A stretch of DNA of 4,689 nucleotides from the IMG/VR virus record IMGVR_UViG_2667527792_000010. The stretch is one strand, 5' to 3'. The DNA is from a virus (Duplodnaviria > Heunggongvirae > Uroviricota > Caudoviricetes). Under the pieces are notes generated by a model that was not told where the DNA came from, searched no databases, and saw nothing but the letters and a program-made list of their open reading frames with translations. A program made the translations under genes and the position numbers. Positions 1 through 4,689 of this stretch are shown piece after piece; position 1 is the stretch's first letter; each line of letters starts with the position of its first letter.

Positions 1-399
1 ATGTACGTGATGCTGTGGCGCATTGATGCCGGAGATTATGCAGGGGCGCTGGAGATCGGGCGTCATGCCCTGCGTCATGGCTGGGTGATGCCGCTGGGTA
101 ACCGCAACGTGCAGACCGTGCTGGCAGAGGAAATGGCAGACGCGGCGCAGAGCGCAATGCTTGCCGCCACCGGCTTTGATGCCGATCTGTTGCTGCAGAC
201 GCTGGAGCTGACAGACGGTCTGGATATGCCGGACCAGTCACGGGCGCGTCTGCATAAAGCGATTGGCGCTGTCCTGAGTGAAAGCAACCCGGCTTCCGCC
301 CTTAATCATCTCAACCATGCGTTACAGCTCGATCCTCGCTGTGGCGTGAAAAAAGACAAACAGCAGCTGGAGCGCAGACTGCGCAATGACAGCCGCTGA
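1..399 (+). CDS. M: Phage terminase endonuclease subunit (P2 gpM-like), C-terminal part; probably 5'-truncated by the window edge
   Basis: Open frame from position 1 to TGA at 397-399. The translation resembles the C-terminal region of P2-family terminase small/endonuclease subunits, and the gene sits directly upstream of gpL and gpX homologs as in P2. The window happens to begin with ATG, but the expected protein is longer (about 240 aa), so the true start is likely upstream. Confidence 0.7.
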   Translation: MYVMLWRIDAGDYAGALEIGRHALRHGWVMPLGNRNVQTVLAEEMADAAQSAMLAATGFDADLLLQTLELTDGLDMPDQSRARLHKAIGAVLSESNPASALNHLNHALQLDPRCGVKKDKQQLERRLRNDSR

Positions 400-404
400 C
401 AGAA

Positions 405-429
405 CGTGCCCCCGCGCACGGGCGGCACG
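405..429 (+). other. GC-rich nested inverted repeat (potential RNA hairpin) in the M-L intergenic region
   Basis: Seen directly: CGTGCC (405-410) pairs with GGCACG (424-429), and CCCG (411-414) pairs with CGGG (419-422), around a CGCA loop with a one-base bulge. There is no downstream U-run, so it is not a canonical intrinsic terminator. Confidence 0.3.
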
Positions 430-494
430 GGGTGGCGAAAGGCACTGCCACATCAAAACCCCGTCCACCGCCCTCTATTTCAGGAGAAAGCAGC

Positions 495-959
495 ATGAAG
501 TTTGTTGCGCCAGAACAGGCACCAGAACAGGCGGAAATCATCAGGAATACGCCGTTCTGGCCTGATGTGGACCTGTCGGAGTTTCGCAGCGTGATGCGCA
601 CTGACGGCACGGTGACGCAGCCGCGTTTAAAGCAGGTTGCGCTGTCGGCAATTTCGGAGGTCAACGCAGAGCTGTATGAGTTTCGCAGACGCCAGCAGAT
701 GCTGGGGTATGCCTCGCTGGCAGAAGTTCCGGCGGAACAGCTGGACGGCAAAAGTGAGCGCATTCAGCACTATTTCAACGCGGTTTACTGCTGGGCACGC
801 GCCATGCTCAACGAACGATACCAGGACTATGACGCCACGGCGTCCGGTGTGAAGCGGGGCGAGGAACTGGCGGAAGCAAGCGGTGATTTGTGGCGTGACG
901 CCCGCTGGGCCATCAGCCGGGTGCAGGATGCGCCGCACTGCACAGTGGAGCTTATCTGA
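495..959 (+). CDS. L: Phage head completion/stabilization protein (P2 gpL-like)
   Basis: ATG at 495 is preceded by AGGAG (483-487) at 7-nt spacing; stop TGA at 957-959 overlaps the next start (TGATG). Position between M and X matches P2 order. The ORF track extends the frame to a GTG at 432, which lacks an RBS and lies immediately after the hairpin, so the 495 start is preferred. Confidence 0.7.
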   Translation: MKFVAPEQAPEQAEIIRNTPFWPDVDLSEFRSVMRTDGTVTQPRLKQVALSAISEVNAELYEFRRRQQMLGYASLAEVPAEQLDGKSERIQHYFNAVYCWARAMLNERYQDYDATASGVKRGEELAEASGDLWRDARWAISRVQDAPHCTVELI

Positions 960-1162
960 TGAAAGTGCGTGCGCATCAGTATGACACGGTGGACGCGCTT
1001 TGCTGGCGTCATTACGGGCGCACGCAGGGGGTCACGGAGCAGGTACTGAAGGCAAATCCGGGGCTTGCCGAATACGGCCCCTTTTTACCTCACGGGCTGC
1101 AGGTGGAGCTGCCGGACATTCCGACCACCACCACCGTGCAGACCGTCCAGCTATGGGACTGA
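959..1162 (+). CDS. X: Phage tail protein X (P2 gpX-like)
   Basis: 67-aa ORF, the same length as P2 gpX as I recall it, with a Phage_tail_X-like N-terminus (MKVRAHQYDTVDALCWRHYG). Start overlaps the L stop; conserved position before the lysis cassette. Confidence 0.8.
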   Translation: MKVRAHQYDTVDALCWRHYGRTQGVTEQVLKANPGLAEYGPFLPHGLQVELPDIPTTTTVQTVQLWD

Positions 1163-1165
1163 ATT

Positions 1166-1381
1166 ATGACGCTTGAGCGAATCAGCGCCTTTATCACGTA
1201 TTGCATCGCCGTCGTGCTGGCCTGGCTGGGCGATTTGTCCATCAAGGATGCCTCAACGCTGGGCGGTCTGATGATTGGTGTACTGATGCTGGCTATCAAC
1301 TGGTACTACAAACACAAATCCTACCTGCTTCTGCGCGACGGGCAGATCTCGCGGGAGGACTATGAATCCATCAATCGTTAA
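1166..1381 (+). CDS. Small class-II holin, candidate pinholin
   Basis: 71-aa product with two hydrophobic segments (SAFITYCIAVVLAWLG and LGGLMIGVLMLAINWYY) and a charged C-terminal tail (RDGQISREDYESINR). It lies immediately upstream of, and overlaps by 20 nt, a SAR-type endolysin gene. Size and topology resemble the phage 21 S21 pinholin class rather than the 93-aa P2 Y holin. Confidence 0.6.
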   Translation: MTLERISAFITYCIAVVLAWLGDLSIKDASTLGGLMIGVLMLAINWYYKHKSYLLLRDGQISREDYESINR

Positions 1382-1874
1382 ACGCTGCCTTGTCGGGGCC
1401 GTGCTGGCTATTGCTGCCACGCTGCCGGGTTTTCAGCAGCTTCACACCTCCGTGGAGGGGCTGAAACTGATTGCTGATTACGAAGGCTGTCGTCTGCAGC
1501 CGTATCAGTGCAGCGCGGGTGTCTGGACCGACGGCATTGGTAATACATCGGGCGTCATTCCCGGCAAAACAATCACGGAACGACAGGCAGCAGAAGGGCT
1601 GATCTCCAACGTGCTGCGTGTGGAGCGGGTACTGGAAAGGTGTGTGAAGCAACTGCCACCACAGAAGGTGTATGACGCTACGGTGTCGTTTGCCTTCAAC
1701 GTGGGGACGGGCAATGCCTGCAGCTCCACGCTGGTGAAATTGCTCAATCAGCGGCGCTGGGCGGATGCGTGCCGACAGTTGCCGCGCTGGGTTTATGTAA
1801 AAGGTGTGTTTAATCAGGGGCTGGATAACCGCCGTGCGCGGGAGATGGCCTGGTGTTTACAGGGAGCAAACTGA
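1362..1874 (+). CDS. SAR endolysin, T4 E-like lysozyme of the P1 Lyz / phage 21 R type
   Basis: GGGAGGA precedes the ATG at 1362. The N-terminus is a weakly hydrophobic, Gly/Ala-rich signal-anchor-release segment (KRCLVGAVLAIAATLPG). This is followed by a lysozyme catalytic region (VEGLKLIADYEGCRLQPYQCSAGVWTDGIGNT, with candidate E32/D39/T56 triad) and a C-terminal FNVGTGN...TLVKLLNQ...W motif, all closely resembling P1 Lyz and R21. Confidence 0.85.
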   Translation: MNPSIVKRCLVGAVLAIAATLPGFQQLHTSVEGLKLIADYEGCRLQPYQCSAGVWTDGIGNTSGVIPGKTITERQAAEGLISNVLRVERVLERCVKQLPPQKVYDATVSFAFNVGTGNACSSTLVKLLNQRRWADACRQLPRWVYVKGVFNQGLDNRRAREMAWCLQGAN

Positions 1875-1875
1875 A

Positions 1876-2253
1876 ATGAAAAAGAAATTAATCAGCGGAC
1901 TGTTTCTGATGTTATGGATGGCGCTGTTAATCGCAGCAATGGTGTATCCGCAGGGGATTTTTCCGGTACTGGCAGCGTCCGGCGTTTGGGTAGCCTGTTT
2001 GCTGACATGGGCGGTAATTCCGGTAGCACTGGCTGCGTTAATTAAGAATGGCCCGCTCTGGCAGGAGTTAAGGGCATCTTTACTGAAGACAATTACCCGA
2101 AAAGAAAACGTATTTATCAGTTGGGTGATGCGATTGCTGATTGTTGTAAGTCTCGCCTGGACGGGGTGGGCTATTACCCTGGTCTTTTATCTACTGACCG
2201 TTATTGCCTTCTGGATCACCCGTAATCAGATGGCGCAACAGGTAGCAGCATGA
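1876..2253 (+). CDS. lysA: LysA-like polytopic membrane protein (putative lysis-timing regulator or antiholin)
   Basis: ATG at 1876 (MKKKLISG...) lies 1 nt after the lysozyme stop, with GGGAG at 1862-1866. The product is 125 aa with about four hydrophobic transmembrane segments. Its position between endolysin and spanins matches P2 lysA. The ORF-track start at 1804 would overlap the lysozyme and lacks support. Confidence 0.55.
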   Translation: MKKKLISGLFLMLWMALLIAAMVYPQGIFPVLAASGVWVACLLTWAVIPVALAALIKNGPLWQELRASLLKTITRKENVFISWVMRLLIVVSLAWTGWAITLVFYLLTVIAFWITRNQMAQQVAA

Positions 2254-2678
2254 ACCGGTTGCTGCTGGTTGTGCTGGCGTTATTACTGGCGGCGCTGGGC
2301 TGGCAGACGTGGCGGCTGGCTGATGCCAGCCAGACCATTAGCACGCAGGCAGACGAGCTGCAGAGCAAAAGCCAGGCACTGGCAAAGAGCAACAGCCAGC
2401 TTATCAGCCTGTCCATTCTGACTGAAACCAATAACCGGGAGCAGGCGCGGCTCTATGCCGAAGCAGAACAGACCAGCGCGCTGCTGAGACAACGACAACA
2501 CCGGATCGAGGAACTGAAACGTGAGAACGAGGATTTACGCCGCTGGACTGATACTCCTTTGCCTGCTGACATTATCCGGCTGCGGGAACGTCCGACGCTC
2601 ACCGGAGGTGCAGCTTATCGTCAGTGGTTGTCCGCGAGTGACACCGTGTCGGCTGGATCAGGCAGAGCCGCGCACTAA
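2250..2678 (+). CDS. lysB: LysB, Rz-like inner-membrane spanin (i-spanin)
   Basis: ATGA overlap with the lysA stop. N-terminal transmembrane anchor (LLLVVLALLLAALGW) followed by a long charged, Gln/Glu/Arg-rich predicted coiled-coil region. 142 aa; position matches P2 lysB. Confidence 0.7.
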   Translation: MNRLLLVVLALLLAALGWQTWRLADASQTISTQADELQSKSQALAKSNSQLISLSILTETNNREQARLYAEAEQTSALLRQRQHRIEELKRENEDLRRWTDTPLPADIIRLRERPTLTGGAAYRQWLSASDTVSAGSGRAAH

Positions 2679-2811
2679 CGGTGATCTGAACGCGTTGTTG
2701 GATGAAACGGAGGCCGCCTGGGCGGTCTGTGCAGACAAAGTGGACATGATTATTGCGTGTCAGGAGCAAAACAGTGAACAAACCACAATCCCTGCGCCAC
2801 GCCCTCAATAA
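2521..2811 (+). CDS. lysC: LysC, Rz1-like outer-membrane lipoprotein spanin (o-spanin), in an alternative frame overlapping lysB and R
   Basis: GTG at 2521 is preceded by GAGGA (2508-2512). The product opens with a lipoprotein signal peptide (MRTRIYAAGLILLCLLTLSG|C) with lipobox L-S-G-C, and the mature part is Pro/Cys-containing. The frame starts inside lysB and ends at TAA 2809-2811, inside the start of R. Confidence 0.65.
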   Translation: MRTRIYAAGLILLCLLTLSGCGNVRRSPEVQLIVSGCPRVTPCRLDQAEPRTNGDLNALLDETEAAWAVCADKVDMIIACQEQNSEQTTIPAPRPQ

Positions 2812-3205
2812 AGCGGTGCCTTATGTCCGCAATAACCCGGACAAACTGCATCTGTTTGTGGATAACGGTTCGCTGGTTGCCACGGGGGCCAGCTCCATGT
2901 CGTGGGAGTACCGTTACACCCTGAACGCGGTGATTGAGGATTTCAGCGGCGACCAGAATCTGCTGATGGCCCCGGTTTTGCTGTGGCTGAGGGATAACCA
3001 GCCCGATGCCATCAATAACCCGGCGTTACGGGAAAAACTATTCACCTTTGAGGTGGATATTCTGCGCAACGATGTCTGTGATATCAGCCTGAACCTGCAA
3101 CTGACGGAGCGTGTGCTGGTCAGCACTGACGGTAGTGTGTCGAGTGTTGAAGCTATAGCGGAACCTGATGAACCTGAAGAAATGTGGACGGTGAAACGTG
3201 GCTGA
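2774..3205 (+). CDS. R: Phage tail completion protein R (P2 gpR-like)
   Basis: GTG at 2774 with AGGAG (2762-2766) at 7-nt spacing. The N-terminus (VNKPQSLRHALNKAV...NPDKLHLFVDNGS) resembles P2 gpR as I recall it. Conserved position after the lysis cassette. The ORF-track TTG at 2753 is an in-frame upstream alternative, less likely. Confidence 0.8.
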   Translation: MNKPQSLRHALNKAVPYVRNNPDKLHLFVDNGSLVATGASSMSWEYRYTLNAVIEDFSGDQNLLMAPVLLWLRDNQPDAINNPALREKLFTFEVDILRNDVCDISLNLQLTERVLVSTDGSVSSVEAIAEPDEPEEMWTVKRG

Positions 3206-3644
3206 ACTGCAGAAGGTGGACGACTGGCTGAGTGCCTTGCTGGCGAATCTGGAACCAGCCACGAGAAGCCGCATGATGCGCCAGCTGGCGCAGGAACTGC
3301 GCCGGACACAGCAGCAGAATATCAGGATGCAGCGCAATCCAGATGGCAGCAGTTATGAACCGCGCAGGGTAACAGCACGCAGCAAGAAGGGGCGCATCAA
3401 ACGTCAGATGTTTGCAAAGCTGCGCACCACAAAATACCTGAAAACTGCCGCCAGCACCGACTCTGCCAGCGTGCAGTTTGAAGGCAAGGTGCAGCGCATT
3501 GCCCGCGTTCACCATTACGGCCTGCGAGATCGCGTCAGTCGTAAGGGACCGGAGGTGCGTTACGCAGAGCGTCGCCTTCTGGGTGTAAATGATGATGTTG
3601 AGGCAATGACCCGCGACATGATTCTGCAATGGCTGGCGGGGTGA
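3198..3644 (+). CDS. S: Phage tail completion / virion morphogenesis protein S (P2 gpS-like)
   Basis: GTG at 3198 overlaps the R stop by 8 nt. The 148-aa basic product is close to the roughly 150 aa I recall for P2 gpS. Position between R and V matches P2 order. The exact start is uncertain because the RBS is weak. Confidence 0.75.
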   Translation: MAELQKVDDWLSALLANLEPATRSRMMRQLAQELRRTQQQNIRMQRNPDGSSYEPRRVTARSKKGRIKRQMFAKLRTTKYLKTAASTDSASVQFEGKVQRIARVHHYGLRDRVSRKGPEVRYAERRLLGVNDDVEAMTRDMILQWLAG

Positions 3645-3648
3645 TCTT

Positions 3649-3666
3649 TGTATCAGCACTGATACA
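3649..3666 (+). promoter_or_regulatory. TGT-N12-ACA dyad, candidate Ogr/Delta-type activator site of the P2 late promoter for the V-W-J operon
   Basis: Seen directly: TGT (3649-3651), 12 nt (ATCAGCACTGAT, itself palindromic), ACA (3664-3666), in the 68-nt S-V gap. P2 late promoters are reported to carry a TGT-N12-ACA element centred near -55 and to lack a -35 hexamer; the S-V gap is the expected location of the V promoter. Confidence 0.5.
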
Positions 3667-3712
3667 AGTTGCAGCACTGCCGCCTTTCTTCCCCTGATGG
3701 CAACCTTTCCCT

Positions 3713-4291
3713 ATGAACGCACAATTAACCGAAATCATGCGCCTTATCACCAACCTGATCCGCACAGGGGTAGTCACCGAAGTGGACAGGGAAAACTGGC
3801 TTTGCCGGGTGAAAACGGGCGAGCTTGAAACCAACTGGATCAGCTGGCTGACGCTGCGTGCCGGGAATGCCCGTACATGGTGGCGACCATCGGAAGGTGA
3901 GCAGGTGGTGCTGCTGAGTCTGGGCGGCAATCTGGAAACCGCCTTTGCGCTGCCCGCTGTCTATTCGAATCAGTTCGCACCACCGTCGACGTCGGCGGAC
4001 GCCTGCGTGACAGAACATCCTGACGGTGGCTGGTTTGAATACGAACCCGCCACCGGGCGCTGGTATGTCAGGGGCATCAAATCCATGGTCATTGAGGCTG
4101 CTGACAACATCACCATGAAAACCAGTGAGTTTGTACTGGAGGCTGACCGCACGCGCATTAACAGCGAAGTGGTGATCAATGGTGGCGTTACCCAGGGCGG
4201 CGGAGCGATGAGTTCTAACGGGATCGTGGTTGATGCGCATCAGCATACTGGCGTCCTGAAAGGCGGCGATACAACCGGAGGCCCGATATGA
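3713..4291 (+). CDS. V: Phage baseplate assembly protein V (P2 gpV-like baseplate spike)
   Basis: 192-aa ORF. The N-terminal region (LIRTGVVTEVDRENWLCRVKTGELETNWISWLTLRAGNARTWWRPSEGEQVVLL) is characteristic of the Phage_base_V family and resembles P2 gpV as I recall it. The first in-frame start is ATG 3713, immediately after an in-frame TGA; no Shine-Dalgarno sequence is visible upstream. Confidence 0.85.
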   Translation: MNAQLTEIMRLITNLIRTGVVTEVDRENWLCRVKTGELETNWISWLTLRAGNARTWWRPSEGEQVVLLSLGGNLETAFALPAVYSNQFAPPSTSADACVTEHPDGGWFEYEPATGRWYVRGIKSMVIEAADNITMKTSEFVLEADRTRINSEVVINGGVTQGGGAMSSNGIVVDAHQHTGVLKGGDTTGGPI

Positions 4292-4689
4292 CGCTTTATA
4301 GCGGGATGAACAATACCAGCGGCAAAGTCATTACTGATATTGATCATCTGCGCCAGTCGGTGCGGGACATTCTGCTGACACCGCAGGGTAGCCGTATTGC
4401 CCGCCGGGAATATGGTTCCCTGCTGTCGGCACTGATAGATCAGCCACAAAATCCGGCATTACGCCTGCAGGTCATGTCGGCAGTGTATGTGGCGCTGAGT
4501 CGCTGGGAGCCACGGTTGACGCTGGATTCCATCACCATCAACAGCAATTTTGACGGTTCAATGGTGGTGGAGCTGACCGGGCGGCGGAATAACGGTGTGC
4601 CTGTGTCCCTTTCCGTATCGGCTGAAAGGCAGCCAGAAAATCAGTGCCACAAACAAAGCAATGAGCCAGAACAGCGGATCGCGCAACAT
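4288..4689 (+). CDS. W: Phage baseplate protein W (GPW/gp25 family), 3' end beyond the window
   Basis: ATG at 4288 overlaps the V stop (ATGA). The translation ([46 protein letters not shown]...) matches the GPW/gp25 family. The frame stays open for 134 codons to the window end, so the stop is not observed. Confidence 0.8.

Follow-up and report, generated by a model that had tools for sequence, protein, structure and literature searches.

The segment at 2250-2811 very probably encodes the distal end of the lysis cassette of a P2-like prophage, with overlapped lysB and lysC spanin genes that run into the tail genes. We put the probability of this reading at about 0.93. The window, meaning the whole 4,689-nucleotide stretch of DNA that was analysed, covers late genes of a P2-like (Peduoviridae) prophage of Escherichia coli (Table 1). 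The lysB/lysC/R arrangement is real and conserved, and it is ordinary: it is already known for P2-like prophages and is not new. The layout has been known for P2 for two decades, curated HMMs for LysB and LysC exist, and in about a fifth of complete E. coli genomes the locus already carries the names lysB and lysC from the NCBI pipeline.

Table 1. Genes and signals in the window (frames and start codons as read in the sequence).
Feature	Position	Strand	Evidence and remarks
Terminase endonuclease subunit gene, 3' end	1-399		
L	495-959		
X	959-1162		
HP1-family holin	1166-1381	+	Pfam PF16080 / PF00959 for holin and lysozyme; NCBIfam NF038378 in cassette
Lysozyme	1362-1874	+	Pfam PF16080 / PF00959 for holin and lysozyme; NCBIfam NF038378 in cassette
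Multi-pass membrane protein gene at lysA position	1876-2253	+	Hydropathy
lysB	2250-2678	+	ATG to TAA, 142 aa, frame 0; ORF list, TIGR03495
lysC Shine-Dalgarno-like GAGGA	2508-2512	+	8 nt before GTG 2521, within lysB Glu-Glu codons
lysC	2521-2811	+	GTG to TAA, 96 aa, frame 1 (+1 relative to lysB); NF038368, PF23793
LysC lipoprotein signal peptide	2521-2583	+	n-region M-R-T-R, hydrophobic core, lipobox
R Shine-Dalgarno AGGAG	2762-2766	+	7 nt before GTG 2774, within lysC codons
R	2774-3205	+	GTG start, 143 aa, frame 2; PF06891, PHROG 65
S	3198-3644		PF05069; 8-nt overlap with R
V	3713-4291		
W	from 4288 onward		

The prophage of E. coli A28 is 100% identical across positions 1-4619 of the window, and in that identical prophage PGAP names the three genes lysB, lysC and phage tail protein. 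Klebsiella and Escherichia phage records are 96.6-98.4% identical over 2250-2811, and 1014 of 5426 complete E. coli genomes contain a match to this segment. The order of the lysis cassette, Y-K-lysA-lysB-lysC-R-S, matches that of P2, and the stop codon of the membrane protein gene at the lysA position overlaps the start of lysB (ATGA). A scan of the whole window against Rfam returned nothing credible, the sole match having E = 0.5. The prophage in the window is truncated within gene W and fused to yehW. The lysis cassette in this host may be part of a defective prophage and may never be used.

The genes lysB, lysC and R each occupy their own forward frame, three in all. The lysB/lysC overlap spans 158 nt (2521-2678) and encodes LysB residues 91-142 together with LysC residues 1-53. 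The next 95 nt (2679-2773) encode lysC alone (LysC residues 54-84), and the final 38 nt of lysC (2774-2811) encode LysC residues 85-96 and the first 12-13 codons of R. On re-reading the sequence, the coordinates, the frames and the 133-nt and 38-nt figures given in the earlier note proved exact throughout. The "three-way overlap" that it described is a chain of two pairwise overlaps; no base lies in three genes, 2679-2773 belonging to lysC only. The overlapped Rz/Rz1-type spanin architecture and the gene identities that it proposed are upheld by curated family models, a conserved lipobox and the same layout in P2. As defined by Summer 2007 and Kongari 2018, this is an "overlapped" two-component spanin, in which lysC starts in the +1 frame inside lysB and ends past it. 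It is not an "embedded" pair of the lambda Rz/Rz1 kind, since the last 133 nt of lysC lie downstream of the lysB stop.

LysB matches the NCBIfam equivalog TIGR03495 phage_LysB ("Rz-like lysis system protein LysB") with 172 bits (6.7e-51, cutoff 92.75) and falls into PHROG 89, "Rz-like spanin". Its hydrophobic segment is N-terminal only (15-aa windows starting at residues 1-6), and a single-sequence AlphaFold2 model predicts one helix over residues 2-101 with a pLDDT of at least 89, the C-terminal part being less confident. We infer that LysB is a type II i-spanin with an N-terminal transmembrane segment and a long periplasmic helix, the orientation in the membrane being a predicted one. A search of the PDB for sequence relatives of LysB and LysC found none with an E-value < 0.2.

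The product of R aligns over residues 1-131 to positions 1-133 of Pfam PF06891 P2_Phage_GpR (159.7 bits, cutoff 25, 5.6e-47) and belongs to PHROG 65. It is the P2-type tail completion (tail terminator) protein, and its gene sits between the lysis genes and S. The GTG start at 2774 is also annotated in KP12, 500465-1 and E. coli A28.

Related loci were fetched with the R protein as the only query, blind to lysC, from one genome per species. The hits come from Escherichia, Citrobacter, Enterobacter, Klebsiella, Raoultella, Pantoea, Tatumella, Rosenbergiella and others, and the resulting alignment contains the window and 32 R-selected loci (33 sequences, 50-97% nucleotide identity). Stops in the lysC frame of relatives that keep lysB and R, which the earlier note had said would count against the gene, do not occur: the frame is open in all 32 R-selected loci and in the window, that is, in 33/33 aligned sequences. 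Every R-selected locus that contains the region has the open frame; its start lies 253 nt ahead of R in nearly all, and in most the product has 96 aa. Indels are numerous in lysA and in the 5' part of lysB but absent from the alignment between about 2472 and about 3180. Minus-strand ORFs in 2216-2808 (49-72 aa) were also considered as genes and rejected, being open in only 4, 17, 18 and 26 of 33 relatives.

LysC is recognized by two curated profiles. NCBIfam NF038368 "P2_Rz1" matches with 124.4 bits (cutoff 27, 1.5e-36) and aligns residues 5-88 to profile positions 2-85 of 85, and Pfam PF23793 LysC matches with 58.8 bits (cutoff 27, 5.2e-16). The N-terminus, M-R-T-R-I-Y-A-A-G-L-I-L-L-C-L-L-T-L-S-G-C21-G, contains two arginines, 14 uncharged residues and the lipobox L18-S19-G20-C21 (2572-2583). 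By a self-coded pattern rule of the PROSITE PS51257 type, LysC has a lipoprotein signal with Cys21 as the predicted lipidated residue. The signal expected for this frame is thus present by that rule, and it is conserved across loci: the lipobox reads [LI/M]-S-G/A-C at this position in all of them but two from Tatumella (L-P-G-C). The residue at +2 is Gly22 in the window and Gly, Ala, Thr or Ser in relatives, with no Asp. The rule for outer-membrane sorting, which turns on an Asp at +2 after the lipidated Cys, is established knowledge. LysC would be sorted to the outer membrane because its +2 residue is Gly and not Asp.

Mature LysC has 76 aa, 9% of them proline. Its conserved core lies in the stretch that encodes lysC alone and comprises the motifs E64, W67, C70-A71, K73-V74-D75 and C80-Q81-E82. 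Four periplasmic cysteines (37, 43, 70 and 80) are invariant. LysB in the window has zero cysteines, so any disulfide-linked dimerization must lie on the LysC side. LysC had been described as longer than typical Rz1 proteins, which is true relative to lambda Rz1, whose precursor of 60 aa is much shorter; 96 aa is, however, the length of P2 LysC and the norm of the family, most loci encoding 96 aa.

An in-frame stop two codons upstream, at 2515, makes GTG 2521 the first possible ATG/GTG/TTG start of lysC. The motif GAGG before it is kept in 30 of the 33 aligned loci, the start codon is GTG in 31 sequences and ATG in 2, and the ATG of P2 lysC aligns with GTG 2521. At least five different starts of lysC are in use in public records (96, 94, 82, 58 and 38 aa), and some records annotate no lysC. 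LysC might accordingly begin downstream, with a smaller lysB overlap or none, at CTG 2563 (82 aa), GTG 2638 (58 aa) or TTG 2695 (38 aa); PGAP, KP12 and 500465-1, respectively, annotate these starts on DNA that is identical or 97-98% identical. We consider this very unlikely. From 2563, M-L-T-L-S-G alone precedes the Cys, leaving neither an n-region nor a hydrophobic core. From 2638 or 2695 the entire lipobox is lost, which rules out an outer-membrane lipoprotein as the product. The conservation at the upstream site (GTG or ATG in 33/33, GAGG in 30/33, the P2 ATG aligned there) also argues against the downstream starts, as does the NF038368 alignment, which already begins at residue 5 of the 96-aa form. 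Judged from these sequence features, the shorter forms in public records appear implausible, and GTG 2521 is the preferred start. PMC6139136 reports wrongly called starts as a general problem in the annotation of overlapped o-spanin genes. Because the 82-, 58- and 38-aa calls cut away part or all of the lipoprotein signal, automated o-spanin searches based on signal peptides miss these genes.

Selection was estimated separately for each frame as pN/pS, using pooled Nei-Gojobori estimates across all sequence pairs. The lysC-only stretch (2680-2772) bears directly on whether LysC exists as a protein. The lysC frame could be a chance open frame in GC-rich DNA that is kept by the constraint on lysB and R, and alternative open frames are indeed common here, including several minus-strand ORFs of 49-72 aa, one of which is open in 26/33. 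Within the lysC-only stretch, however, pN/pS is 0.28 in the lysC frame (pS 0.43), compared with 1.80 in the lysB frame and 1.13 in the R frame, which serve as controls. An excess of variability at third positions appears in the lysC frame only (permutation p = 1e-4), and LysC is therefore under purifying selection. A chance frame also fits poorly with an open frame in 33/33 sequences with conserved lipobox, start codon and Shine-Dalgarno motif, with the strong matches to curated LysC HMMs and with the genetic definition of lysC in P2 (Markov et al. 2004, as related in PMC3091744). The selection pattern excludes the chance-ORF reading, to which we give practically no probability, and lysC is retained as a gene.

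The lysB/lysC overlap is truly dual-coding. The pN/pS ratio is below 1 in both frames, at 0.54 in the lysB frame (pS 0.25) and 0.68 in the lysC frame (pS 0.22), with 1.83 in the third frame as a control, and there are no indels. In the lysB-only part, the lysB frame has a pN/pS of 0.50 and a pS of 0.47, so that pS in the overlap is about half that of single-coding sequence. Nucleotide diversity is 0.165 in the overlap versus 0.294 in the lysB-only part, and the third-position excess is flattened in both frames.

The lysC/R overlap behaves differently in this respect. Over its 11 codons, R evolves as in its single-coding part (pN/pS 0.18 and pS 0.46 in the overlap, 0.18 and 0.545 in the R-only part), and the lysC frame resembles a non-coding control (pN/pS 1.90). 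The "strong dual coding constraint" proposed for both overlaps therefore holds for lysB/lysC, where pS is halved, and is not supported for lysC/R, where the pS of R is 0.46 vs 0.545 on only 11 codons. Residues 87-96 of LysC vary between loci; E85 and Q86 do not, but only because their bases are shared with the GTG-AAC of R. The distance from the R start to the lysC stop also differs between loci (35, 38, 47 or 71 nt). The 38-nt extension of lysC into R looks like a tolerated read-on, and the last ~10 residues of LysC seem to be free of constraint, as far as the 11 codons of the overlap report.

The exact overlap length of 38 nt in P2, Fels-2 and most loci examined could instead point to a function, either a coupling or balancing of o-spanin and R translation or a need for the C-terminal tail of LysC. 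The Shine-Dalgarno motif and GTG of R lie inside lysC and are conserved, with CAGGAG before R in 32/33 aligned loci and CAGGAA in the remaining one (L020). Such a function is nonetheless very improbable in our estimate. Synonymous sites of R are as free in the overlap as elsewhere, the lysC frame is without constraint there, and the tail of LysC varies. In some loci lysC stops 35, 47 or 71 nt after the start of R; in phiCTX the overlap is 17 nt, and PMC3091744 gives 8 bp for Burkholderia KS14 and KL3. The kinship of the loci explains the constant 38 nt well enough. Ribosomes that finish lysC across the R start might also set the ratio of tail completion protein to spanin, and lysis would then be tied to tail assembly through translation. 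Such a translational effect is compatible with these data because it needs no codon-level signature; we nevertheless think it improbable to much the same degree, as a specific lysC-R mechanism fits poorly with overlap lengths of 8-71 nt and with a LysC tail that shows no constraint. The tolerated read-on remains the preferred reading. Taken together, the lysB/lysC overlap with its dual constraint and the lysC/R overlap that lacks it offer a small, clean example that gene overlap need not constrain both products.

We also considered an RNA element in lysC, where the P2 record has a putative transcription attenuator. It is unsupported here. A 7-bp GC-rich hairpin at about 2711-2729 lies near the position of the P2 attenuator and has no U-tract, the folding z-score of the region is ordinary (-0.07 for 2679-2790 and -1.15 for 2700-2750), and the hairpin is lost in more distant loci without compensatory changes.

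The gene identities suggest a mechanism in which the lysB product would serve as the inner-membrane spanin subunit. The outer-membrane subunit would come from lysC, translated in the +1 frame from a GAGGA/GTG site of its own within lysB. The LysC precursor is predicted to be exported, lipidated on Cys21 and cleaved by signal peptidase II. By analogy with lambda Rz/Rz1 and P2 LysB/LysC, the two proteins may join via their periplasmic ends, through the peptidoglycan mesh, and so span the periplasm. With the peptidoglycan removed by the holin and lysozyme, the LysB/LysC complex would disrupt the outer membrane, probably by fusion with the inner membrane, as the presumed final step of lysis. The localization of the two proteins, the formation of their complex and the membrane fusion are thus proposed by analogy, following the published spanin model (PMC6139136, PMC3091744). 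The layout itself probably represents a compact late operon from the common ancestor of P2-like phages.

The closest experimental reference is P2, the tested example of an "overlapped" two-component spanin (PMC6139136), in which lysC starts in the +1 frame within lysB and stops out of frame within R (PMC3091744). In the P2 RefSeq record NC_001895, lysB occupies 7922-8347, lysC 8202-8492 (96 aa) and R 8455-8922. P2 thus shares with the window the gene order, the three-frame layout, the length of LysC and the 38-nt lysC/R overlap. The two LysC proteins are 42% identical over 92 aa in a gap-free alignment and have cysteines at the same positions (21, 37, 43, 70 and 80). LysB is less similar, with only about 33% identity (C-terminal half), and P2 LysB has two C-terminal cysteines that LysB in the window does not have. 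Further differences concern the lysC start codon (ATG in P2, GTG in the window), the lysB/lysC overlap (146 nt versus 158 nt), the hairpin of the putative P2 attenuator, which is not conserved in the window, and the HP1-type holin and the endolysin, which are from other families than those of P2.

The lambda Rz/Rz1 genes resemble those of the window in that they encode overlapping inner-membrane and lipoprotein subunits, the lipoprotein being in the +1 frame (PMC6139136, PMC3091744). Rz1, however, is fully contained in Rz, whereas lysC continues past the end of lysB. The proline-rich region of lambda Rz1 includes a penta-proline stretch (PMC6139136), which LysC of the window lacks, and neither LysB nor LysC matches the lambda-type Rz or Rz1 families in Pfam.

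The same overlapped layout recurs in other phages and prophages. Burkholderia KS14 and KL3 have the lysB/lysC/R arrangement with an 8-bp overlap into R (PMC3091744), shorter than the 38 nt of the window, and in phiCTX (orf12 / orf12.5 / orf13) lysC likewise ends in R after a shorter overlap of 17 nt. Fels-2 has the 38-nt lysC/R overlap of the window. Prophages of the Wadgaonvirus, KP12 and Fels-2 types in Escherichia, Klebsiella and Salmonella are 83-98% identical over 2250-2811 at the nucleotide level and have an identical layout; their records differ from the window only in where, or whether, lysC is annotated.

The start of lysC, which occupies 2521-2811 in the window, differs among public records on identical or near-identical DNA (see table), and the gene is left unannotated in several others, for example the GenBank records Cartapus, RE2010 and 4LV2017. 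The 82-, 58- and 38-aa calls lose the lipoprotein signal peptide partly or wholly. Both lysC (2521) and R (2774) begin with GTG in 31 of the 33 aligned loci, and the S start in the window is a GTG too. Weak start codons seem to be the rule here for genes that start within another gene.

Features discussed in this section, with the coordinates of the window or of the comparison record in which they lie
Feature	Location	Strand	Annotation or source
Membrane protein gene, lysA position	window 1876-2253		NF038378 'DNZ54_00345 family'; PHROG 162
5' end of chromosomal yehW (glycine betaine ABC permease), final 70 bases	window 4620-4689	minus	
lysC, 82 aa, CTG start	L004 (E. coli A28 prophage) 4063-4311		PGAP annotation
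lysC, 58 aa	L001 2889-3062		KP12 record
lysC, 38 aa	L002 2946-3062		RefSeq 500465-1 record
lysC, 94 aa	L040 878-1162		Fels-2 record
Hairpin, 'putative transcription attenuator'	L003 2900-2918		P2 record

LysC carries four invariant periplasmic cysteines (37, 43, 70 and 80). P2 LysB has two cysteines near its C-terminus, whereas LysB of the window lineage, encoded at 2250-2678, has none. A GC-rich hairpin lies at 2711-2729 inside lysC, near the site annotated as an attenuator in P2. The window and P2 hairpins share no base-for-base homology; both lack a U-tract on the 3' side, and the window hairpin is lost in distant relatives.

The gene at the lysA position encodes a product that consists of hydrophobic segments, and the label of its PHROG, 'endolysin', seems to be a mislabel for this membrane protein. 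No other gene of the block comes close to it in variability. The diversity of 0.51 across the 33 loci, together with numerous indels and the near absence of codon periodicity, suggests that the gene has been replaced by non-homologous or very divergent alleles.

At 4619/4620 the prophage breaks off within gene W, 28 nt short of the normal W stop, and gives way to yehW sequence that is found at 98.6% identity in approximately 5000 E. coli genomes. The W/yehW junction itself occurs in none of 5426 complete E. coli genomes. It either marks a deletion that cut the prophage short or is a chimera of the assembly or window. A real junction would mean a defective prophage, one without J and the tail genes that follow it.

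The lysozyme (PF00959, 1362-1874) has a hydrophobic, Gly/Ala-rich N-terminal segment spanning residues 4-24 or so, and its gene overlaps that of the HP1-family holin (1166-1381) by 20 nt. Lysozyme and small holin look like a signal-anchor-release endolysin with its holin. The pair differs from Y/K of P2, whereas lysB, lysC and R of the window are P2-like. If this reading of the holin and endolysin holds, the lysis cassette would be a mosaic.
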